From assembly GCA_043750125.1 (NCBI GenBank), contig JAYVCD010000155.1:1-14536 (forward strand): DNA of 14,536 bases, in the 5' to 3' direction. The position numbers and the translations under genes are program-made. The notes beneath the pieces were generated by a model. That model saw nothing but the letters and a program-made list of their open reading frames with translations. It was not told the DNA's origin and made no database searches. This document shows, one piece after another, positions 1 through 14,536 of the stretch. The DNA comes from Archangiaceae bacterium (lineage in GTDB: Bacteria > Myxococcota > Myxococcia > Myxococcales > Myxococcaceae). Position 1 is the first letter of the stretch; each line of letters opens with the position of its first letter.

Positions 1-3725
<3,725 letters not shown>

Positions 3726-3733
<8 letters not shown>

Positions 3734-6700
3734 CTTTGCCCCCGCTGACTCGAGCCTTGAGTCGCGATTGCCCCAGCCGCTGGGCCGATTCACGCCGGGC
3801 CTGGCCGCGCCCGGTCGATTGCTCGAGCCGCCCGGTCGGGGGCGGAACCGCGCCTTGTTCCAGCCGTTCGGCCAGCGCCCGAATCGAGGGGTAGGTGAAG
3901 AGGTCGACCAGTGACACTTCGCGCCCGAGCGAGGAATGAAGCTCGGCTTGCAGCCGAATCAGCATCAAGGAATGGCCGCCGAGGTCGAAGAAGCTCTCGG
4001 TGACTCCGACTTCGGGCAGACCGAGCAGGCCGCTCCACAGAGTGCACAGGGTGCGTTCGAGCGCGGTCGCCGGCGCCTCGCGAACGACGCCCTGGGTCGC
4101 GCGCGCTTCGCTGGGGCTGGGCAAGGCCGCGCGATCGACTTTGCCGTTCGCCGTCAGCGGGAACGCTTCGAGCGGGACGAGGTGGGCGGGCACCATGAAG
4201 CCGGGAAGCCGCTCGCGCAGAAACGCTCGCAGCGCAGTGAGGTCGATCGGCTGCCCGGCCGAGGTGAGGTACGCGACCAGCTCTTTCTCCTCGCTGGCGG
4301 TGGCGCGGGCAATGACCAGTGTCTGCCGCACGGACGGATGCTCGCTGAGCACCTGTTCGATCTCGCGCGGCTCGACGCGCATCCCCCGAATCTTCACCTG
4401 AAAATCCACCCGGCCGAGGATCTCGAGCGCGCCGTCGGGACGAAACCGACCGCGGTCACCGGTGAAGTAGATGAGGTCGGTCGGGTCCTGACGAAACGGG
4501 TTGGGGACGAACCGGCGCGCATCCTCTTCCGAGCCGCCGAGGTAGCCCAGGCTGCGGAAGGGAGTGCGGATCACGATTTCTCCGACCTCGCCGATTCCGG
4601 TGCGCTGGCGGTTCTTGTCGAGCACCAGCGCCTGGGCGTTGGGGAGCGCCCGTCCGACCGGCTGGACTCCGACGGCCGGCTCTGGGGGCACTTCGAAGAA
4701 GCACTTCGCGAGCGTCGTCTCGGTCGGGCCGTAGAGGTTTCCGACCGCACCGCTGGCCGGAAACGCTTCGCGCCAGCGTCGGACCAGGGCGTGGTTCAGC
4801 GGCTCGCCGGCGAACAGCACCCAGCGCAGCGCGCGCAAAGAGACCTCGGGTGCACGGGTCAGCCCGCCGAGCCAGGTCTGCGCGACGGCCGGCACGGTGT
4901 GGAGCAAGGAAATTTTCTGACGCTCCAGCCAGCCCAGCAGCGGGCCCGGCCCCAGCTCGAGCTGTTCGTCGGGCAGGCACAGCGTCGCCCCGCTCACCAG
5001 CGGCAGGAAGATGTCGCGCAGAACCACGTCGAAGGACAGCCCGGTGAGCTGAGCCACCCGGTCGCCCGGGCCCACCTGAAGTTGGTCGCGTTCCCACCCG
5101 ACGAAGTGCGCCAGCCCCTTGTGGCAACCGCGCACGCCTTTGGGCTGGCCCGTCGTGCCAGAGGTGAAGAAGAGGTAGGCGGGGTCCTCGGGACGCAGCG
5201 GGGGCGTCGGGGTGTCGACGGCTTTGATGGAGCCATTGGGCTGGCCCGACGCGGGGTCCACCTCGAGCACCGCCCGGTCCTTCTCGAGCTCGGCGATCGA
5301 CTCTGCGCCACAACGCAGCACCCAGCGCGCTTGCGCCAATGAGACCATCTGAAGCTGTCGGCGCAGGGGCAGCTGACGATCGAGCGTGAGCAACACCCCA
5401 CCACTGCGCAGCACGCCCACGATCGACGCGATGAGGCCGAAGCTCGGGGGGCCGAGTACCGCCACAGCGTCCCCGGGTTTCAGCCCCCTTTCGCAGAGGA
5501 CCGCGGCGGTCGCGCGCGCCGCGGTGTCCAGCTGCGCATAGGTCCACGACCGTTCGCCCTGACAGATGCTGGGCAGCAGCGGGGCCTTCTTCGCCCAGTC
5601 GGAAATCTGCTCGGTCACCGGGAACAGCACCGGCTCGTCGAGGGCGACCGCGGGGTCTGCGAGGACGGACCGGGCAGAATCGGTGAGCAGGCTCAATGCG
5701 CCGATTGGAAGCTGAGGCGACTTCGCGACCTGCTCGAGGACCAGCCGAAACTGCTCACCCAGCTCGCGCATCCGCTCGGCCGAATACAACGAGCGCTGGT
5801 AGGCCAACCGCAGCACGACCGCCCCGTCGCGCTCTTCGGCGTAGACGGTCAGCGGCAGCTTGGTGTCGGTTTCGGGAAGCTCGAGCGGAACGAAGGTCAG
5901 CCCCTGGCCCTGCATCGCCGACTGCGGGGTGTTCACCAGGTTGAACATCACCTGGTAGAGCGGATTGCGGTGGAGGTTGCGATCGGGCCGCAGCTCTTCG
6001 ACCAGCTTTTCGAACGGCAGCTCCTGGTGCGCGTAGGCGTCGACACAGGTGCGCTTCACCTGGGCCAACAACGCGCAAAAGGTGGGGTCGCCCTGCAGCG
6101 AAGTGCGCAGCACCAGGGTGTTGAGGAACAGGCCAATCAACGGCTCGGTCTGGGCGTGGCTGCGGCCCGCGACGGGAGTGCCCACCCGAATGTCTTCTTG
6201 CCCCGACCATCGCCCGAGCACGATTTTGAACGCGGCGAGCAAGGTCATGAACAGCGTCGCGCTTTCCCGTTCACCCAGGGCTTTGAGGGCTGAGGTCAGC
6301 GCTGCGCTCAAACGAACGGTGTGGGTGCCACCCGCGATCGACCGTTCGGCCGAGCCGTCGGTGGGCAGCTCGAGCTCGGGCACCGCCCCGCCCAGCTGCT
6401 GCTTCCAATACGCCCGCTCTTTCTCGAGCGCAGGCCCAGCCAGCCGGCCCCGCTGCCAGAGGGCGAAGTCGGCATACTGAATCGAGAGCACGGGAAGGAC
6501 CGGGCTGCGACCGCCCACGCAAGCGTCGTAGAGCTCGCCCAGCTCCTGCACCAGTACCGCCGTCGACCAGCCGTCGCAAACGATGTGATGAATCGAGAAC
6601 AACAGCACGTGCTGAAGATCGGCCAACCGAATCAGGGTGGCCCGAACCAACGGCCCGGCGGCGAGATCGAACGGGGCACGGGCGTCGTCGGCGATTCGAC

Positions 6701-7085
6701 GGGCGATTTGTCCCTGCACCTCGGAACCGTCGAGCGCCACCGCAGTCAATGGCAACGCGCCGACCGCGGCGATCTGCTGCATCAACTGCCCGTCCACCGG
6801 AACGAACGTGGTCCTCAAGATCTCGTGGCGCTCCACCAACTCGGTGAGCGCTTGCTTCAAGGCCACAAGATCCAGCGGCCCGTCGAGGCGAAGCGCGGCA
6901 GGCAGGTTGTACGCCGAGCTGTCGGGCGTCAACTGCTGCAGAAACCAGATGCGCTGCTGAGCGAATGACGCGGGCGTGGAGCCCACCGACCGGCGCGGAA
7001 TCGAAAGCACGGCCGAGGCGGTGATGCCCCGGTCCTTGAGCATTCGGTTGAACAGCTCACGCCGAAGGTCGGACGAGGCGATCAT
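3726..7085 (-). CDS. Single-module NRPS, C-A-T, 1119 aa
   Basis: C domain: SFAQQRIWFL, HHIVCDGWS (~6570-6590), HQELPFEKLV. A domain: YLFFTSGTTGQPKG, FAGE, NLYGPTE, FTGD, GRVDFQVKIRG, NGKVDR. T domain: FFDLGGHSL. Start placed at ATG 7085, which overlaps the dioxygenase TGA (ATGA); the longer track start at 7373 lies inside the dioxygenase gene. Confidence 0.96.
7027..7046. repeat. 20-nt exact repeat in the NRPS 5' end (encodes RMLKDRG)
   Basis: CCCCGGTCCTTGAGCATTCG, identical to 9123-9142 and in the same codon register (codons 14-20 of both genes). Confidence 0.92.
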
Positions 7086-7891
7086 CCGCGCGCCGAAATT
7101 GCCAGGGGCGAGAAGTCGCGACCGCACAAGAAGTCGGGCCGGGGCCGCTCGACCGCCACCGGAGTGTTCTGCACGCTGTTGTAGGTAATCAGCGCCAGCA
7201 CCCGGTCGAACGGCGAGAGGTTCGGCGAGGACGAGTGGCACAGGTTGCAATGGAAAAAGAGCAGCGAGCCCGGCGGCCCCTTGGGCGCGACGATTCCGGT
7301 GCTCTTCACCAGCCGCGAGATGGTCGGCTTGTCCAACGAGTACTTGAGGTCGGCGGTGAGGTTCGAAATCCACGAAGGGTTGTCGCGGTACTCGGCCGGA
7401 ATCTCGTCCTTGGCGGGCACGTCGATCACGCCCTCTTTGTGCGAGCCGGGAATCAACAGCAGCGGCCCGTTGAACTCGGTCACCTCATCGAGGAAGACCA
7501 CCGCATTGGTCATGCGCGGCTGCAGCGTTCCGTCTTCCTTGAGCCAGAACACGTAGTCCTGGTGCCATTCCCAAACGTCACCTTGCAGCCCGAGCTTCGC
7601 GTTGATCTTGAACTGGTGGATGTAGACCGGGCTGCCGATGATCTGCATCGCGGGCCCGACGAGGGCGTCGTTGACGCCCAGCGAGTTGAAGACCGGGTTG
7701 GTCAGATGAGAGCCGTAGACCGAACGAACGGTCTTTCCGTCTTTCTCCAGAATTCGTCGGGGAGACTCTTCGGCGAACGTGGTCGGCAGCTCGGCCTGCA
7801 AGCGCGCCACTTCGTCCCGAGAAAAATAGCCGGGCAGAAAGAGGAAGCCTTCGTTCTCGTACTGCTCGAGCTGGGTCGGTGTGAGTTCCAT
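7082..7891 (-). CDS. Fe(II)/2-oxoglutarate dioxygenase, PhyH/EctD superfamily, L-proline trans-4-hydroxylase-like, 269 aa
   Basis: HxD motif in WEWHQDY, distal His in NLCHSS, 2OG-binding Arg (DRVL), VYIHQFKINAK and NGPLLLIPGSH. From memory it closely follows the Dactylosporangium proline trans-4-hydroxylase (LEKDGxTVR, HQFKINAK, GDVWxWHQDYxFWxxEDG, RPxFL). GAGG SD at 7897-7900 supports ATG 7891. Confidence 0.9.
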   Translation of the reverse strand: MELTPTQLEQYENEGFLFLPGYFSRDEVARLQAELPTTFAEESPRRILEKDGKTVRSVYGSHLTNPVFNSLGVNDALVGPAMQIIGSPVYIHQFKINAKLGLQGDVWEWHQDYVFWLKEDGTLQPRMTNAVVFLDEVTEFNGPLLLIPGSHKEGVIDVPAKDEIPAEYRDNPSWISNLTADLKYSLDKPTISRLVKSTGIVAPKGPPGSLLFFHCNLCHSSSPNLSPFDRVLALITYNSVQNTPVAVERPRPDFLCGRDFSPLAISARG

Positions 7892-7968
7892 CGGAACCTC
7901 TAAGTGCACGCACGGAAAGAAACGTTCAACTGGGACAAAATCCTCAGGGTGGGACTGCCGACCTCAGG
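7870..7968. repeat. Direct repeat copy 1 (~99 bp): intergenic leader plus first 7 codons of the dioxygenase
   Basis: About 81/99 positions identical to 9160-9256 by manual alignment with one 2-nt gap. Includes exact blocks GTGAGTTCCATCGGAAC and GTGGGACTGCCGACCTCAGG. Confidence 0.93.
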
Positions 7969-9181
7969 TCGCGCGGGCCGAAAACTTCGACAGCGGCTGG
8001 CGCAGGGTTGCGCCGCAGAGCGCGGCGGCGTCTTCGGCGGTGATCGGGTTTGGCGCTGCGACGCCGAGCACGGCACACAGGGCGCGATCGCTGGTGGAGT
8101 ACGCGTCGAGGTGCGCGTCTTCAAAGGCCGGATAGTCCGCCCACTGCGAACCCAACGCGGGCAGGTGCGCACGGGCACGGGCGCGGACCTCTTTGAGCAC
8201 GAGGTTGACCAGCGGCTTCGCAAGCCCGTCCAGCGACCGGCTCACGTCGGCCACTTGTCCCGTCTGCCGCTGCCGCAGCTCGTGCTCGACCTGGGCCAGA
8301 TGCAGGCGTTGGGGTCCGCGCGGGGCGCGACGGGAGATCCCCGAATGGCGAGCGCCCAGCATGAAGGACGTGTGGGCCAGCATCAGCTCGGTCGTCTCGA
8401 TTCCGAACCGGTAGTAGTCGTCGAAGCTCGGAATGATTTCTGCCAGCGGCGATGGCTCCGTCGCAGGCGGCGGCGCGAGCAGCACCTCGAGCACCGAAAG
8501 AATCAGCCCGGGAGGGCCCGCGCAAACCTCGACCAGGCCGATCAGCTCCTTGCCCTTGTTGATCGACGCGTACAGCGTGTCCGCCGTGGGCAGGCGCCAC
8601 GAGACAGGCACCAGCCAGCGCGCACCCGGCAGCCGACGGATCAAGCCGGCACTGATCGCGCGCGTGCCCACCGAGCTGGTCACCCCGAGCAACACTTTGT
8701 AGACGGCCGCGATCAGCACCGGCATCGCGCCGTCAGCGACCGGCTCGACCCGCCGCGATGCGAGAAACACCGGCAGCGCAAGACCGAGCTGCGCGATGCG
8801 CCAGAGGTCGAAGAAGTCGAGCCTCGTGCGCCCTTCTCGCCGCGCGTATTCGGCCGACAGCAACCCGATCGTCGACTTCACCTCGGACCACGACCGGGTC
8901 ATCTGCTTCAGCGCCGATGTGTTCATCGGCAGCGCGTGCTCGTTCCGGCTGTCGTGGTACGGGCAGCGCTTCAGCTCTGATTTCACCTGGGCGTACAAGT
9001 CGGGCGTGCGCTGCTCACCCAACGGGCGACCGTCGGTGTCCCGGTACCGGGCGATGCCATTGCCCAGAATCAAACGGGCGGGCGAGACGCGGGCCGCTGA
9101 AGAAGCTGCCGAAGGTCCAATTCCCCGGTCCTTGAGCATTCGCTTGTAGAGGGCCGATCGCTGGGTCGAAGTGAGTTCCAT
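7964..9181 (-). CDS. Uncharacterised 405-aa protein, first gene of the cluster, with an NRPS-like N-terminal peptide
   Basis: Long ORF co-oriented with the cluster that fills the gap exactly and has protein-like composition. Motif-like segments RDxDGRPxGE, CPYHDSR, PMNxSALxQ and LIGxxEVCAGP. Family not recognised. Confidence 0.8.
   Translation of the reverse strand: MELTSTQRSALYKRMLKDRGIGPSAASSAARVSPARLILGNGIARYRDTDGRPLGEQRTPDLYAQVKSELKRCPYHDSRNEHALPMNTSALKQMTRSWSEVKSTIGLLSAEYARREGRTRLDFFDLWRIAQLGLALPVFLASRRVEPVADGAMPVLIAAVYKVLLGVTSSVGTRAISAGLIRRLPGARWLVPVSWRLPTADTLYASINKGKELIGLVEVCAGPPGLILSVLEVLLAPPPATEPSPLAEIIPSFDDYYRFGIETTELMLAHTSFMLGARHSGISRRAPRGPQRLHLAQVEHELRQRQTGQVADVSRSLDGLAKPLVNLVLKEVRARARAHLPALGSQWADYPAFEDAHLDAYSTSDRALCAVLGVAAPNPITAEDAAALCGATLRQPLSKFSARAT
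9123..9142. repeat. 20-nt exact repeat in the 5' end of the 405-aa gene (encodes RMLKDRG)
   Basis: Identical to 7027-7046. Confidence 0.92.
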
Positions 9182-9256
9182 CGGAACTTCTCAGTGCACG
9201 CGTCAGAAAAAACGGTCAACTGGGACCCCACCCCCAGTGGGACTGCCGACCTCAGG
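9160..9256. repeat. Direct repeat copy 2 (~97 bp): leader plus first 7 codons of the 405-aa gene
   Basis: Matches 7870-7968. Encodes MELTSTQ versus MELTPTQ; the SD position reads GAAG instead of GAGG. Confidence 0.93.
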
Positions 9257-9268
9257 CGCTGTCGGCTT

Positions 9269-9284
9269 GTGCGGTGAACCGCAC
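9269..9284. promoter_or_regulatory. Inverted repeat GTGCGGT-GA-ACCGCAC in the divergent intergenic region; possible operator or hairpin
   Basis: Perfect 7-bp arms. Function is inferred from position only. Confidence 0.35.
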
Positions 9285-9314
9285 CGCGGCCTCAAACGGC
9301 GCTCAGCTCGGACT

Positions 9315-9335
9315 CGTGACGTCTCTTCCGTCACG
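9315..9335. promoter_or_regulatory. Inverted repeat CGTGACG-N7-CGTCACG in the divergent intergenic region
   Basis: Perfect 7-bp arms with a 7-nt spacer. Function is inferred from position only. Confidence 0.35.
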
Positions 9336-9422
9336 TCGCTCCTTGTTTGCAGCTTGCGGTCCGAGCGCGAACTTCTGAACTGCCGTAATAGGGTCCGTTC
9401 TTCGTTTGCCGGGGGTCTGGAG

Positions 9423-9520
9423 ATGGGGATTTTTGGTTCGCTGTTTGGCCGAACGGCCTCGCAGTTCAAGAAGGAAGCCGAGCGCGTGTTTCAGCAGGCC
9501 AATGACCTGCGCCACCGGGA
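9423..9520 (+). other. Probable true N-terminal segment of the downstream gene, out of frame (MGIFGSLFGRTASQFKKEAERVFQQANDL)
   Basis: TASQFKKEAERVF resembles TREQFAAEAQAVL, the start of the second repeat unit of the 762-aa ORF. The 762-aa frame is closed upstream by TGA at 9503-9505. Confidence 0.6.
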
Positions 9521-11809
9521 ATGGAGCGACGCGGGCCCCTCTTGTCCCTCTCACTGCTCAACTCGTTTGGAGGAGACATCGACGAGCTCGACGTCTCTGA
9601 GGATCTCAATGCGTGGGTGGCCAGCGGAGATCCAAAGGTCATCGCTGACGGGCTGGCCCCGTTCGTCAAGCCTGGCGCCACGACCGGGAATGGCGTTGTG
9701 CTCTTTTTGGCTTCTTCGTTCGTCGCCGACACGATCCGGCTGACCCAGTCACAAACGCTCGCGACGAAGCCGATCGTCGAAGGGTTCAGCGGGGCGATTC
9801 GGATATTGACTGGGGTGGATCAAGCAACGCCGATAACGCACGAGTTCTTGCAGAGCATCGAGAGCGGGTTCGAGGATCTCTGGGCGGAGACGATCAATGC
9901 TCTGCCCAGCGCCGAGTTCGTGGCGGTATCAGACCGAGTTTTCAAGATCAGCGATCCCCTGGTGATCCTCGCCTGGGACGCGCAGCAGCCGCCGTCCGTC
10001 TTTGGCCAGCAGGTGGTGGCAGTGTTGGACGAAAAATTGGCTTTCTACTTTGGCAGCTATGACACCGAAGCGGTGGGCGTGGTGGGCGAGCGAATTGGTC
10101 GCCTGATCGTCAAAGAGAAGCCCGACCTGCTGGGCCACGTGTTGGTTCGTCAGGGTGACCAATGGCATCGCTGGCTCCCACCCCGGAGCAACGCGCTCGC
10201 GAGGGCTCGCTTCGTGATGATGCGGCGCTGCGCGCTGCGCGGCGAGTACGCCAGACAAGGTCGGCTGCTGCGAAAGGGACGAGAAGAGTACGTCGCGACC
10301 TACATGGCGGACACGAAGGACGAGCTGACGTTGCTTTCGGTTTCACCCTGGCTCGCTGGGAGGGCGATGCTGTTGCCCCGCGCCGAGATGCTGGTGCTGG
10401 GCCAGAGCCTGCTGAAGCAAAAAAAGGTTTCGTTCGACGTGTTCCAGAAGCAGCTGGGCCACCTGCTGAAGCAGGTCGAAGGCCTCTATCCGCCCAGGTG
10501 GCTCGTGGACGCGTTTCCGACTGCCGAGGAACTGGCTGCACTTCCAGAAATGGTCCACGGCGGCGCGAACAGCCCGCTGGTCGAATGGTGGGAAGAGGGT
10601 GTCACCGGGACTTCGGTCGAACTGTCTCCGGCGTACGGCGTGCCGACCCGCGAGCAGTTCGCGGCCGAAGCGCAGGCGGTGCTGGCCGAATTGGGCGAGA
10701 GCCAGATGGAGTACTCCCAGGAGCAGTTCGGCGTTCTGCTGCCCGCCGACGAAAAAGCGCTTCCACCCGGGATCCCCGAGGGGTTCGGTGCGATGCGGGT
10801 GATCGGGTTTCAGACCCCCTTCGAGCGCTACCGGCATTCCCCCGCCGTCGAACGCCGGCTGATGTTGAAGAACTACTTCACTGACGGCCTCAACGAGTTG
10901 GTCGTTGCGCCGGCAGCGCGGGCAGACGTGCTTCCGATTCTGAGACCGCAGAAGGAACTCTGGCAGAGCGGGCTGCAAGTCAAGCTCCAGTTCCCGGGCA
11001 AGGACGTAGCCGCCTCACGGGCGGTGAGCCAATCGTTCGTCGCGAACCGAATTCGAACTTCCTTCGTGATCGACAGCTCGAAAGCCATCCGCTTCGTGAC
11101 GGACGTTGAGCTGGCCGTCCTGGCGCTGAACGAGGGCAGCCTGTTCGAGCTGGCGATCGCCAACCTCGAGGTGCGCAGCACGCGGCCTCTGCTTCAGGTC
11201 GCCGCGGGCGTCTACGTCTCACCCTACGAAGATGACTACGACGCGACCCGGCTGTTGCTACCGCAGCTGTTCACCAGCCTGAAGCTGAAGGGAGCGCCCG
11301 TCGCGTTCGTGCCCAACCGTTCGACGTTGATCGTCACCGGCAGCGAGGACGTGCCGGGGCTGATTGAAGCGTTCGCGCGGGTGCGGCTTGCGCAGAAAGG
11401 CGATTCGCGGCCGGTCGATGCAGCGCCGCTGCGGCTGGCGGGTGACGAATGGGCGGTATGGCTGCCACCCACAAGCAGCGCCGCCCGCCCGGCGCTCGAG
11501 GCGCTGGTCAACGAGCAGCTGGCTGGCGACCACCAATCTGGCGGAAGGCTGCTCAAAGAGCTGTGGCCCAACAGCGTCGTGGCCCAAATCGCGACCCGCA
11601 CCAGAGCAGACAAGCCCTGGCCCGAGGTGTCGGTGCTTCTTCCCGCTGACCCTTTGGCTGAGGTGCTGCTGCCGATGGCGGACCTGGTATTGACGGCCGA
11701 CGAATTTCAGCTGGCGTGGGCAGACTTCGCGCGCGTCCACGCTGGCAGGCTGCGTCCAGTCGAAGGCGCCGAAGGTCGGTGGTGGCACCTCAGCGGGCTT
11801 CAGCGCTGA
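9521..11809 (+). CDS. Hypothetical protein with two tandem homologous units (second unit tentatively DUF1444-like); possibly frameshifted at the 5' end
   Basis: 762-aa ORF. Internal similarity: GDQWHRWLPP/GDEWAVWLPP, GRLLRK/GRLLKE, MLLPRAEMLVL/VLLPMADLVL, GHLLKQVEG/GRLRPVEG. The second unit has GVYVSPYEDDYDATRLLLP and PVAFVPNRSTLIVTGSED. The family name is from memory and unverified. Confidence 0.75.
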   Translation: MERRGPLLSLSLLNSFGGDIDELDVSEDLNAWVASGDPKVIADGLAPFVKPGATTGNGVVLFLASSFVADTIRLTQSQTLATKPIVEGFSGAIRILTGVDQATPITHEFLQSIESGFEDLWAETINALPSAEFVAVSDRVFKISDPLVILAWDAQQPPSVFGQQVVAVLDEKLAFYFGSYDTEAVGVVGERIGRLIVKEKPDLLGHVLVRQGDQWHRWLPPRSNALARARFVMMRRCALRGEYARQGRLLRKGREEYVATYMADTKDELTLLSVSPWLAGRAMLLPRAEMLVLGQSLLKQKKVSFDVFQKQLGHLLKQVEGLYPPRWLVDAFPTAEELAALPEMVHGGANSPLVEWWEEGVTGTSVELSPAYGVPTREQFAAEAQAVLAELGESQMEYSQEQFGVLLPADEKALPPGIPEGFGAMRVIGFQTPFERYRHSPAVERRLMLKNYFTDGLNELVVAPAARADVLPILRPQKELWQSGLQVKLQFPGKDVAASRAVSQSFVANRIRTSFVIDSSKAIRFVTDVELAVLALNEGSLFELAIANLEVRSTRPLLQVAAGVYVSPYEDDYDATRLLLPQLFTSLKLKGAPVAFVPNRSTLIVTGSEDVPGLIEAFARVRLAQKGDSRPVDAAPLRLAGDEWAVWLPPTSSAARPALEALVNEQLAGDHQSGGRLLKELWPNSVVAQIATRTRADKPWPEVSVLLPADPLAEVLLPMADLVLTADEFQLAWADFARVHAGRLRPVEGAEGRWWHLSGLQR

Positions 11810-11856
11810 GACCGTCGATCAAGATGCCCGCTAGACACGCGATCAGGTCGACGGTC
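11810..11856 (+). terminator. Possible stem-loop directly after the stop codon
   Basis: GACCGTCGA (11810-11818) and TCGACGGTC (11848-11856) are perfect inverted arms. The loop is long and there is no U tract. Confidence 0.3.
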
Positions 11857-12089
11857 GTCCTCGGCCTGCGGACGAGCTCACGACGCGAAGAAGGACTCCC
11901 GCGGCGAGGCAGCAGAGGCCCCGAGCAGCACACCTGAATCGTGACCGATCGCCCGACGCTCGAGCCGAAGAAAGAGCTGTCAGCAGGTGGGCAAAAAAGT
12001 CCCAGCTGAAAACCTGAAATATTGTTTCGCAGAGGGCCTGATCGGAACTATTCGGTTGACCGAGCTCGTGTTTGTCAATCCAGGCGCCC

Positions 12090-13256
12090 ATGACCCTCTC
12101 TGCTGTAGTTAACGATGCAAGCTCGGACAGTGTCGAAGCTGGATCCTCGCTCGGCAAAGAGATTCGTGCCGTCTTCAAGGGCGAGAGGCCCGACGCGGTG
12201 ATCGTATTTGCCTCGCCGAGACATGATTTTTCGGCCTTGTTGAAAGCACTTCAGGCCAGTTGCAGTCCGAAGATCTTGATCGGCTCTTCGTCGGCGGGCG
12301 AATTTACCAGCGCCACCCACGGAGAAGGCCTCGCCTGCGCGATCGCGCTGGGCAATCCACAGATGGAGTTCTCGCTCGGAGTGGGTCGAAACCTCAGCCG
12401 AGACCGCAAGCTCGCCTCGAATCAGGTCACCTCTTCGTTCAAGGGCCTCGCCGGTCGCCAGTTTGAACATCGCGCCGCGCTGGTGTTGGCGGACGCGCTG
12501 GCGGGACAGGCGGATGAGCTGGTCGAACACCTGACCGTCGGCACCGGCGCGAGCTACAGCCTGTTTGGCGGGGGAGCGGGCGGCGACGACAATTTCGAGA
12601 AGCGCTTCGTCTTCGCCGGGACCGAGGTGATCAGCGATGCCGTCGTCGCGCTCGAGATCCTCTCTCACAAGCCGATTGGGGTGGGGGTTCGACACGGCTG
12701 GACGCCGAAGAGCCCGGCGTTGCGGGTGACCGAGGCAGAAGGAATGCGCCTGGGAAGCCTCAACGCTGCCCCCGCCGCCGAAGTGTTTGCCGACCACGCG
12801 GCAGCCACCGGCCAGAAATTCGATCTCGCCCAGCCGCTGCCCTTTTTCCTCCACAACATCCTTGGGGTCGACACCGGCAACGGCCACAAGCTGCGGGTCC
12901 CGCTGACGGTGAATGCGGATCGCTCGGTGGCCTTCGCGACCGAAGTGCCGGCGGGAGCGACGGCGGCCATCATGTGCGTCAGCGCCGACTCGGCTGCTGC
13001 CGCCGCCGCCGAGAGTGCCCGCGATGCGCTGAACCAACTGGGAGGTCACAAACCGGCAGTGGCGCTTTTCTTCGACTGCGTCGCCACCCGGCTGCGAATG
13101 GGAAAAGAGTTTGGCTTCGAGCTGAAGGCGGTCCAGGAAGTGTTGGGCGAGGTCCGGTTCGCGGGCTGCAACACGATTGGGCAGATCGCCCGCGTCGATG
13201 GCCAATTCAGCGGCTTTCACAACTGCACCGCAGTGGTGTGCGTTCTCCCAGACTGA
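12090..13256 (+). CDS. FIST-N/FIST-C domain sensor protein (NosP-like), 388 aa
   Basis: VIVFASPRHD, LIGSSSAGEF, LFGGGAGGDD, GVRHGWTP, LFFDCVATR, AGCNTIGQIA and FHNCTAVV are typical FIST motifs. ATG 12090 is preferred over TTG 12072. Confidence 0.9.
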   Translation: MTLSAVVNDASSDSVEAGSSLGKEIRAVFKGERPDAVIVFASPRHDFSALLKALQASCSPKILIGSSSAGEFTSATHGEGLACAIALGNPQMEFSLGVGRNLSRDRKLASNQVTSSFKGLAGRQFEHRAALVLADALAGQADELVEHLTVGTGASYSLFGGGAGGDDNFEKRFVFAGTEVISDAVVALEILSHKPIGVGVRHGWTPKSPALRVTEAEGMRLGSLNAAPAAEVFADHAAATGQKFDLAQPLPFFLHNILGVDTGNGHKLRVPLTVNADRSVAFATEVPAGATAAIMCVSADSAAAAAAESARDALNQLGGHKPAVALFFDCVATRLRMGKEFGFELKAVQEVLGEVRFAGCNTIGQIARVDGQFSGFHNCTAVVCVLPD

Positions 13257-13264
13257 TCCGCACG

Positions 13265-14536
13265 ATGGACGTAACCATTCACAGCCTGATGCTTCGTCTC
13301 ACCCGCGCCGAGGGACGTGCGGCATCGGCTGCGGCGCTGGCCACCTTCGTTGGCGCCAGCGAGCTGGTCGTCTTCGCCGTTGATCCCGAGGTCAACGTCC
13401 TTCTGCCTGCACCTGGGTTTTCCCAGACGCTGACCGACGTCAAGGCCTGGCGCGCCTTCCTCGACGCGACCGTCAATTCAGCCTCCGCCCACCGCGCGCC
13501 TCTGAGCGGCCGGGAGGCAGTGGGAATCCGGGGGGATGATGGGACGGTGATGGTGTTGCTTGGCGGCGCCCCCCGGCCCTGGGCGTTCGAGCAGATCGCG
13601 CAGCTGCTTCCCTTCATCGGAGCGGTGTTCGTCGCCGAACGCCTCGCGCTGTCGGGAAAGGGCGACGCGATGGTTGCTCGGGCGTCAGCACGGAAGGCCG
13701 AAGAGCTCACCGCCTCGCTGGCGCGGACCCAGGCGGGGCTGAACACCGCGCTGGGCGAGCTCCATCAAAAACAGGAGTGGCTGTCGACGACGCTGAAGAG
13801 CATCGGAGACGCGGTGATCGTGACCGATGCGGGCAGCCAGGTGATGTTCATCAACGCCGTCGCGGGGAAGTTGACTGGGTGGGCGCCGGGCGAAGCGAAG
13901 GGCCGTCCACTGAGCGAGGTGTTCCGGATTCACAACCATGACAGCCGCGCGGTGGCCCGCTGTCCGGTGAACCAGGCGTTGACGACCGGAGAGATTGTCG
14001 GGCTGACGAACGAGACCTTCTTGATTCGAAAAGACCTGACCGAGGTCTTCATCGATGACAGCGCGGCGCCGATTCGCAACGAGGCGGGCCGGGTCACCGG
14101 GGCTGTGCTCGTCTTTCGCGACATCACTGCCCGCAAGAGAATCGAGGACGAAGAGCGGAAGCTGCGGGTGAAGGAGCGGGTGGCGCTCGAGTTCGAGCAG
14201 CAACTGATCGGAATCGTCAGCCACGACCTTCGCAACCCTCTGGCCGCGATGCTGATGGCCGCCACGCTGCTCGAGAAGATGGTGCCGGAACCGGCAGCCA
14301 AAAAGGTGCTCGCCCGCATCGCGACCAGCGGGCAGCGCGCCAGCCGAATGATTGGAGATCTACTCGACTTCACCCAGGCCCGCTTCGCCGGCGGCCTCTC
14401 GGTCAGCCCCGCGCCGATGGACCTTCACGACGTGATGAAGCAGGGGGTCGACGAAGCGCGGCTGGCGAACCCCGATCGCACGATCGAAGTGTCTTCCCAG
14501 GGCAGCGGGCGCGGTTGCTGGGATGCGGACCGGATT
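13265..14536 (+). CDS. Soluble PAS-domain sensor histidine kinase; 3' end lies outside the window
   Basis: Manual translation from ATG 13265 (MDVTIHSLMLRL...) is open for 424 codons. PAS: WLSTTLKSIGDAVIVTD...SAAPIR...VLVFRDIT (~13778-14128). HisKA: FEQQLIGIVSHDLRNPL (His 14222-14224), DLLDFTQAR. The HATPase start WDADRI is at the edge. Begins 8 nt after the FIST stop. Confidence 0.93.
   Translation, partial: MDVTIHSLMLRLTRAEGRAASAAALATFVGASELVVFAVDPEVNVLLPAPGFSQTLTDVKAWRAFLDATVNSASAHRAPLSGREAVGIRGDDGTVMVLLGGAPRPWAFEQIAQLLPFIGAVFVAERLALSGKGDAMVARASARKAEELTASLARTQAGLNTALGELHQKQEWLSTTLKSIGDAVIVTDAGSQVMFINAVAGKLTGWAPGEAKGRPLSEVFRIHNHDSRAVARCPVNQALTTGEIVGLTNETFLIRKDLTEVFIDDSAAPIRNEAGRVTGAVLVFRDITARKRIEDEERKLRVKERVALEFEQQLIGIVSHDLRNPLAAMLMAATLLEKMVPEPAAKKVLARIATSGQRASRMIGDLLDFTQARFAGGLSVSPAPMDLHDVMKQGVDEARLANPDRTIEVSSQGSGRGCWDADRI

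Follow-up and report, generated by a model that had tools for sequence, protein, structure and literature searches.

Among the described docking systems of peptide and polyketide assembly lines, those closest to the element considered here are the PAX and class 2 systems, in which, as the relevant passages of the two accounts put it, a single N-terminal helix docks on a two-helix C-terminal domain and salt bridges give the specificity (PMC9113145, PMC11221535). PMC9113145 reports PAX-type single-helix N-terminal docking domains as predicted on oxidoreductases, and β-hairpin docking domains on halogenases, methyltransferases and reductases. In this study, we analysed a 14,536-nt stretch of DNA from an Archangiaceae bacterium (the window, which is the entire contig JAYVCD010000155.1, here C155), and in it a 405-aa protein, ORF405, whose first 33 residues (the tag) resemble the N-terminus of a non-ribosomal peptide synthetase (NRPS) encoded on the same strand. 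We put the probability that ORF405 docks through this copied NRPS helix on the tail of an upstream assembly-line subunit at roughly one half. The features that carry the argument are the following.

7964-9181, minus strand: ORF405, 405 aa; residues 34-405 with the stop codon occupy 7964-9082
9083-9181, minus strand: the ORF405 tag, residues 1-33, from the translation, the identity to the NRPS N-terminus, the AlphaFold2 (AF2) model and a hidden Markov model (HMM)
7082-7891, minus strand: PhyH-family Fe(II)/2-oxoglutarate (2OG) dioxygenase, 269 aa, from a frame plot of GC at third codon positions (GC3), its sequence and PF05721
3726-7085, minus strand: NRPS subunit of 1119 aa with condensation, adenylation and carrier domains (C-A-T; Pfam), with a docking-type helix in residues 1-33 (6987-7085)

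An earlier note on this DNA (the original prediction) had quoted the starts of ORF405 and the NRPS and aligned them, and both the translations and the likeness are correct as given there. From Met1, 17 of 33 residues are identical without gaps, RMLKDRGI is invariant, and the two genes share a 20-nt identical run, CGAATGCTCAAGGACCGGGG. Among 149,973 random 33-mers drawn from the open reading frames (ORFs) of the genome, the highest count was 11 identities in 33 and none reached 12. The likeness stops where the C domain starts, again as claimed: with the NRPS start at the ATG at 7085, the Pfam Condensation match runs from residue 37 (residue 133 of frame P0002 minus 96 spurious leading residues). 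One thing had been overlooked, namely that the dioxygenase gene at 7082-7891 separates ORF405 from the NRPS, so that the two are not adjacent. When several tags are compared, that of ORF405 is closest to the tag of the window NRPS (46% identity, against 26-39% for the others). In the AF2 model, residues 5-18 (9128-9169) form an amphipathic helix and residues 19-33 a non-helical, low-confidence linker with a predicted local distance difference test (pLDDT) value of about 50, the core beginning near residue 34; by block, the values are 69, 68 and 50.

How does this element compare with the known types? The PAX pair (C-terminal docking domain (CDD) of PaxB and N-terminal docking domain (NDD) of PaxC, PDB 6TRP) and the class 2 or type 2 pairs (CurG/H, CurK/L, Bamb_5925/5924) likewise have a single amphipathic N-terminal helix followed by a linker. 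The likeness extends to the spaced Leu/Met/Phe and Lys/Arg residues in the helix and to the presumed partner, an acidic and putatively helical tail after a carrier domain. By the residue numbers given for PaxC, the hydrophobic spacing of the ORF405 tag is similar to it, not identical, and the protein that bears the ORF405 tag, in contrast to theirs, belongs to no known family. By analogy, its membership of the PAX/class 2-type single-helix docking class is plausible. The β-hairpin type (TubC, EpoB and the stand-alone C domain Bamb_5915 of enacyloxin biosynthesis) plays the role proposed here, in that a stand-alone enzyme reaches a carrier protein through it, but these domains have an α-β-β-α-α order, whereas the ORF405 tag is a helix of ~14 residues with no hairpin and no Pfam docking match. 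An unrelated NRPS at one of the loci compared below (L055) has what we take to be a TubC-like N-terminus, and this looks quite different from the ORF405 tag. A third type, the communication-mediating (COM) acceptor with its helix-hand motif in Bacillus-type NRPSs, is also a short element before the C domain that chooses the upstream subunit. Its strands, according to PMC9113145, lie within the C domain itself; a Condensation domain is absent from ORF405, and the tags of the NRPSs studied here, unlike the embedded acceptor, lie 15-20 residues before the first C-domain motif.

The tag of the window NRPS has counterparts elsewhere in the genome. Every NRPS frame was extracted and compared, and a helix-like element is present in six of the seven C-first frames (the seventh opens within its C domain) and absent from all seven internal T-C linkers. 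At the spacing just given, it follows the pattern S-x-x-[KR]-[KR]-x-L-[FL]-x-x-[ML]-L-[KE]-x-x-G. Searching 54,339 ORFs with an HMM built from these six tags gives ORF405 as the best match outside the training set (E 0.0028; next 2.6). When the window NRPS is left out and five tags are used against the same ORFs, the window NRPS scores E 0.0011, ORF405 0.079 and the next match, which is noise, 2.7. On the opposite side of the presumed interface, the upstream subunits on contigs C5, C90, C118 (the PKS, polyketide synthase) and C268 finish in acidic 'LSxEE..LL' tails, most clearly the first three, and the C118 NRPS and the C375 subunit also end in acidic tails. These tails are 27-46 residues long and follow the final carrier domain; ...EVEGLSDEEVSRLLEQG and ...LLAEVEQMSAEEMQQAM are examples. 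Subunits that precede a ketosynthase (KS) carry basic tails instead. The helix thus appears to be the standard N-terminal docking element of C-first NRPS subunits in this organism, pairing with acidic tails, and the proposal that the tag is a docking-type element holds up on these counts. Contig C375 also encodes a single-module NRPS (C-A-T; C375:6718-10871) that is tagged at its N-terminus and has an acidic tail at its C-terminus; beside it is a small protein whose N-terminus resembles, by eye, the Cupin_8 proteins near ORF405 relatives.

Contig C118 offers a likely partner. At the right end of the window a histidine kinase gene is interrupted (13635-14536). Of 920 contig ends compared with the C-terminal portion of its closest homologue, the left end of C118 gives the best continuation (53% identity, E 2.6e-23; next 39%). 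C118:1-255 encodes a HATPase fragment, the gap implied between it and the window kinase is ~21 codons in three homologues, and strand and frame fit. The window and C118 are therefore probably neighbouring contigs; if they adjoin, they hold one NRPS/PKS cluster of about 35 kb or more. The C118 operon comprises a class-III aminotransferase, an NRPS, a PKS, a tagged monooxygenase and an NRPS of the type C-A-T-C-A-T that ends in a carrier domain and an acidic tail. Joined on the minus strand, the order is the C118 operon, three opposite-strand genes, ORF405, the dioxygenase, the NRPS C-A-T and a PKS-reductase. The C118 C-A-T-C-A-T NRPS lacks a releasing domain and, within its contig, a downstream acceptor; the window NRPS lacks a donor within its contig, and the window PKS provides a terminal reductase. 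The C118 tail would therefore be the natural partner of the window NRPS tag, and because the ORF405 tag copies that tag, the same tail would also be the partner of ORF405. On the sequences compared here, a partner shared by the NRPS and ORF405 is likely. The class-III aminotransferase (PF00202) lies at C118:18806-20263 (L076:5807-7264, minus strand) with a zinc alcohol dehydrogenase, just upstream of the NRPS operon; that the two, with the ectoine-hydroxylase-like dioxygenase of the window, lead to a diamino-acid building block is speculation.

The start of ORF405 is a mosaic. Three pieces of sequence in the region bear on its origin.

9160-9256, minus strand: repeat copy B, with a stop-like TGA (9254-9252), a hairpin, a Shine-Dalgarno-like GAGAAG and codons 1-7 of ORF405 (MELTSTQ)
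7870-7968, minus strand: repeat copy C, with the ORF405 stop, a hairpin, a Shine-Dalgarno-like sequence and codons 1-7 of the dioxygenase gene (MELTPTQ)
9209-9310, minus strand: relic of an NRPS gene 3' end, followed by a hairpin, from alignment to C118

Copies B and C are 84% identical over 97 nt, including a 20-nt exact block (direct repeats D1, D3). The first 7 codons of ORF405 and ~75 nt upstream of them copy the start region of the dioxygenase gene, not that of the NRPS; from codon 8 the match switches to the NRPS, and residues 8-33 are NRPS-like. In the dioxygenase-like part, the two genes differ at 2 of 21 coding positions. In the NRPS-like part, compared between the two tags over codons 8-26, synonymous sites are saturated (proportion differing, pS, 0.58) and replacement sites conserved (pN 0.24), while unrelated flanking codons give pN values of 0.79-0.93. 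The two parts of the mosaic differ in age. The 20-nt identity between ORF405 and the NRPS includes a common CGA arginine codon, which is expected to be rare at such a GC content, and this hints at a short conversion tract. The relic aligns to the 3' end of the C118 NRPS gene with a local alignment score of 100 (maximum of 29 in 200 shuffles). In it ~55 nt are homologous to the docking-tail codons ...LELSALSEAEVLAQLD... and are interrupted by small indels, which leave them frameshifted; for the 49-nt core, blastn gives E 1.5e-9. The relic implies that the ORF405 start region once adjoined the 3' end of a C118-like NRPS gene. ORF405 and the dioxygenase gene share a reading frame, the repeat copies lying exactly 1290 nt (430 codons) apart. 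An element of ~50 nt, made of a hairpin GGTCGGC...GTTGACC with an inner GTCCCA/TGGGGT stem and then a T-rich run, stands after a TGA stop at 9182-9262, at 7892-7974 and at C118:330-412 (L067), in each case in an NRPS/PKS operon. It may be a terminator or an attenuator, with three copies and almost no covariation. Logan contigs of sequencing runs X1 and X2, which may be the source sample of the assembly, cover 1841-8814 and 8816-9590 (a 775-nt piece) with 0 differences from the window. Their agreement over 8816-9590 means that the junction between tag and core and the upstream mosaic are not peculiar to the assembly; runs X3 and X4 of the same study, made from different samples, show depth in every bin.

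Beyond the tag, ORF405 belongs to a family of its own. An exhaustive phmmer search at E<=1e-3 returns 573 cluster representatives, most of them 350-470 aa long; 266 of these pass E<=1e-10 and 10 pass E<=1e-30. Among the 149 listed matches other than ORF405 itself, none begins before query residue 23. The family's own N-terminus falls at about ORF405 residue 31-34 and the core starts near residue 34-45. Its members have ~420 aa and are mostly helical, with two invariant cysteines. The original prediction had asked whether homologues keep both cysteines, and they do: D48, R52, C73, R79, N87 and C220 are invariant in 91 sequences. Nearly invariant are G51, P53, E56, Y75, M86, S89, A90, L91, W98, P154, K162, G166 and V219. 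The motifs it had picked out (GRPxGE, CPY, MNxSAL and VCAGP) are conserved in the family, as RDxxGRPLGE, CPY..R, MNxSAL and VCAGP in alignments of 5, 91 and 12 sequences. The set of conserved Cys, Arg, Asp, Asn and Lys residues suggests an active or cofactor site. A degenerate C domain was considered for the body, and is ruled out by the lack of any likeness past residue 33 and by the large family. The gene has GC3 of 0.835 (0.839 in the NRPS) and, from its pattern of GC over codon positions, looks coding.

The view that this body belongs to no recognised family also stands, with no match in Pfam, NCBIfam or the PDB. Pfam finds 0 families on 91 family members, and a profile of these members against PDB sequences reaches a best E of 0.058, with unrelated helical proteins. 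The AF2 model is good (whole protein pLDDT 82.9 and predicted template modelling score (pTM) 0.82; residues 34-250, 91.4 and 0.89). Foldseek gave best E values of 0.44 for the whole model and 0.58 for the core 34-250. In the VIA wide structural search, the best match to the whole model has Z 5.5 (root-mean-square deviation (rmsd) 3.3 Å, 112 aligned) and comes from Dps four-helix bundles over residues 260-405 only; for the core it has Z 4.1 (rmsd 8.6 Å, 106 aligned). P450s account for 23 of the 50 rows of the core search, at Z 2.7-3.5 over 131-158 residues and rmsd 4.8-6.3 Å, which is below the meaningful level, and their recurrence is a lead only. The ESM Atlas gave no usable match for the whole protein or the core, and its own model is poor, with a pTM of 0.29.

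Related loci were collected with a 12-row alignment of the family. An NRPS C domain lies within 10 kb at 6 of 42 reference-genome loci, including 4 of the 5 best matches. The expected association of homologues with NRPS clusters is thus confined to these 6 of 42, and within the window's own taxonomic family it is seen at 0 of 7 loci. In a quick tree, from which row L056 was left out as too short, the 7 NRPS-linked rows of 49 are scattered instead of making up a single clade. The row nearest to the window is L018, from a Holophagales metagenome-assembled genome (MAG), the pairing having an approximate likelihood-ratio test (aLRT) value of 92, and there the homologue lies directly upstream of an adenylation-T-C NRPS. 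At L020 (Polyangium fumosum) the homologue lies between an Asp/Asn beta-hydroxylase and a Cupin_8/JmjC protein, Cupin_8 proteins occur at L017 and L019, and in the window a PhyH protein adjoins ORF405. Fe/2OG-type oxygenases recur beside the closest relatives of ORF405.

Other loci of the family have different neighbours. Long forms occur in 5 of the 36 other genomes from the window's taxonomic family, in frames of 580-710 aa with an extra N-terminal region of ~170 aa that is conserved and has no Pfam match. Of the seven long-form loci, five are near C39-peptidase ABC exporters, four near HlyD-like genes and two near APH kinases, and none has a C domain nearby. At these loci (L010-L015 and L053; for example L013:9201-10949) an outer-membrane efflux protein is usually near as well, and in two of them the APH-family kinase follows directly. 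At ten loci a conserved peptide of ~115 aa is encoded a few hundred bases from the homologue, with a double-glycine-type leader and a Met/Gly-rich core. These belong to a Myxococcota subgroup (L023, L026, L031, L035, L041, L043, L044, L045, L052 and L056; for example L045:4990-5409), in which the leader reads ...QLATVAGG, the core has a run of Met and a run of Gly, and the end is GKKGW. By its sequence it looks like an exported or modified peptide. The family accompanies peptide-making and peptide-exporting systems of several kinds.

Two further proteins bear on whether such a tag can sit on a stand-alone protein. Between the PKS and the tagged NRPS of C118, a luciferase-like monooxygenase of 409 aa is encoded (L067:6906-8135, minus strand), with PF00296 (Bac_luciferase) at residues 61-369 and an N-terminus of ...LSPEQRALLTLKLERTG. 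Its tag, within the ~60 N-terminal residues, was matched visually and has an HMM E of 5.2. Like ORF405, this is a stand-alone tailoring-type protein between assembly-line genes; unlike ORF405, its body belongs to a known family. The idea that stand-alone proteins can bear the tag therefore finds an example in the same genome, where the monooxygenase carries the NRPS-type helix. Within the ORF405 family, the tag HMM has N-terminal matches in only two of 153 proteins, ORF405 and P0141, a 277-aa protein that stands for a cluster of 6 members and has the tag ...LSPRKRQLFDLLLKEK. The contigs of the P0141 cluster reach 29 kb; a metagenome scan for its context returned only 2 marginal fragments.

We propose that ORF405 is a real, translated member of its family which, in this genome only, gained an N-terminal extension of 33 residues that consists of a basic amphipathic helix and a flexible linker. 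The helix would dock on the same C-terminal tail as the window NRPS, that is, on the C118 C-A-T-C-A-T NRPS, and would hold ORF405 beside the last carrier domain. There ORF405 may act on the tethered peptide before the C domain of the window NRPS takes the peptide over, and it may cooperate with the adjacent Fe/2OG dioxygenase. The binding, the timing of the step and any catalysis are what we infer from the relations described above; catalysis on a tethered intermediate is conjecture throughout.

Several observations weigh against this docking model. The original prediction had named homologues that lack the tag and any cluster association as speaking against it, and untagged ones are the rule: 151 of the 153 family members lack the tag, the NRPS-linked ones inspected included. 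It is absent from four complete N-termini at NRPS-linked homologues (L017, L018, L020 and L047); another, L021, is cut at a contig end, and the N-terminus at L055 is unclear. The GC3 of tag codons 1-33 is 21/33 (0.64), against 0.835 for the gene and 28/33 in the NRPS tag. The contrast between pN and pS comes from 19 codons, and constraint on the NRPS copy alone could account for it. Among solved docking domains the tag profile has no sequence match: built from 8 tags and run against all PDB sequences, it listed none, with AfsR as the best match at E 0.087, although the elements are too short for such a search to decide membership. The adjacency of C118 is inferred and unbridged, the X1/X2 Logan contig stopping at the window end, 14536. 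As an enzyme, ORF405 is a candidate only. Finally, the tag itself is a lineage-specific mosaic from local duplication, an origin in keeping with a rearrangement that brought in a promoter and a ribosome-binding site and left the tag as a by-product.

The binding was also modelled. For the C118 carrier domain plus tail (123 aa) with ORF405 residues 1-60, the predicted complex scored 0.37 (runs 0.36-0.38), and the best of 3 controls scored 0.00. Contact agreement between runs was at least 47% and partner pLDDT at least 46. Of 78 solved complexes, 51 reach the mark that this complex passed, as do 2 of 108 mismatched pairs. Only 5 of the 78 did so with scores of up to 0.60, along with all 4 of the passing mismatches (of 180); according to the tool, such a pass is wrong more often than right unless the guess had been likely from the outset. 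The pass may also mirror a likeness to solved docking pairs, and it lends weak support. Of the claim that ORF405 and the NRPS share an upstream partner, one half has gained in substance, since the C118 carrier domain with its docking tail (T-CDD) is a plausible shared partner, while the other half, the binding, is weakly backed in silico.

The alternative that survives best is that the tag is a neutral by-product. A local duplication or recombination would have given ORF405 a start region and a piece of the NRPS 5' end; the tag would be translated but would not dock, and ORF405 would work free or outside the pathway. We regard this as possible, though rather unlikely. The three repeat copies and the decayed NRPS 3' relic mark the region as rearranged, as this explanation expects, and it accommodates the untagged state of nearly all relatives, NRPS-linked ones among them, the low GC3 of the tag compared with the rest of the gene, and the fact that most of the family is not NRPS-linked. 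It explains less well why pN in the helix is below pS and why the helix and its basic face are intact. In addition, the P0141 cluster carries a second, independent tag, a tagged monooxygenase is present in the same genome, and the complex prediction passed, if weakly, with all controls at 0.00.

According to a further, very unlikely explanation, ORF405 docks but mainly competes with the NRPS for the tail, as a decoy or gatekeeper that pauses or regulates chain transfer. An identical helix core, RMLKDRGI, on both proteins with a single tail available would suit such a role, as would a body in which no catalytic family or cofactor motif is recognised. The strong conservation of the core, with Cys, Arg, Asp and Asn invariant in 91 sequences as for an active or ligand site, argues otherwise, and so does the existence of untagged relatives in many contexts. 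No more probable is that the tag is an untranslated leader and that translation begins downstream, for example at the TTG at codon 37. Homologues do begin about 10-30 residues before the GRPLGE motif, the lower GC3 of the tag would fit, and 36 stop-free codons are not rare at 66% GC; but the ATG at 9181 lies within the copied dioxygenase start region, where GAGAAG/AGAGG, a spacer of 5-6 nt and the ATG follow each other by eye, no Shine-Dalgarno-like sequence is seen by eye before codon 15 or 37, and pN is below pS. An assembler chimera at short repeats, for which a MAG of 460 contigs and two 20-nt exact repeats in the region give some opening, is scarcely credible given the difference-free X1/X2 contigs over 1841-8814 and 8816-9590, the X3/X4 depth in every bin, and repeats that are 79-100% identical with exact stretches too short to mislead large k-mers.

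The setting of ORF405 is as follows. The source genome is a MAG of 6.17 Mb in 460 contigs, 89% complete and with ~66% GC. On the minus strand of the window, four genes stand head to tail, namely ORF405, the PhyH dioxygenase, the NRPS and the PKS; the remaining features are these.

2-3793, minus strand: PKS subunit with KS, acyltransferase (AT), carrier and reductase (NAD_binding_4) domains (Pfam); likely start near 3733; runs off the contig
9521-14536, plus strand: three opposite-strand genes, for a 762-aa ORF, a FIST protein and a PAS-HisKA histidine kinase (Pfam)

The dioxygenase gene gives a strong GC3 signal inside what had appeared to be a gap of 878 nt between ORF405 and the NRPS. The stop codon of this gene and the start codon of the NRPS gene overlap as ATGA, an arrangement suggestive of translational coupling. 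The protein matches PF05721 at 108.5 bits (E 7.7e-31; cut-off 22) and carries an HxD iron motif (WHQD), which marks it as a hydroxylase rather than a halogenase. Against the ectoine hydroxylase equivalog TIGR02408 it scores 170.6 bits (E 4.2e-50), under the cut-off of 336.5, so it is ectoine-hydroxylase-like and not EctD itself. A single read-through gene of ORF405 and the dioxygenase was considered and is ruled out by the TGA, by a 72-nt spacer of lower GC3 and by the native PhyH-type N-terminus. The 762-aa ORF (9521-11809, plus strand), divergent from ORF405, is coding-like with GC3 of 0.79 and has no Pfam and no meaningful NCBIfam match. No Rfam family was found within the window. A promoter scan gave 0 sites, and the 3 terminator-like sites in 7000-9600 are no more than in shuffles (mean 2.2).

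A broader proposal, which we hold to be unlikely, is that the ORF405 family constitutes a new enzyme class acting on peptides or carrier-bound intermediates, with a new fold and a two-cysteine active site, working alongside Fe/2OG hydroxylases and repeatedly recruited to NRPS lines and to double-glycine/C39 ribosomal-peptide-like loci. A thiolate-ligated cofactor at the VCAGP loop is one possibility. If this broader proposal is true, the window shows a free enzyme becoming a trans-acting component of an assembly line by way of its neighbour's copied docking helix. That stand-alone tailoring enzymes can carry docking tags is known in principle; what differs here is a tag on a sizeable unannotated family, whose confidently predicted structure resembles nothing solved. 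The tag and its setting give this family its first testable functional context, with an assembly line, a docking partner and a neighbouring dioxygenase. In addition, the mosaic and the decayed relic show how such wiring can arise by copying the docking helix of a neighbour, a point of practical interest to the engineering of split assembly lines. Should the family be catalytic, NRPS chemistry, and possibly that of ribosomal peptides, would gain a new tailoring reaction.

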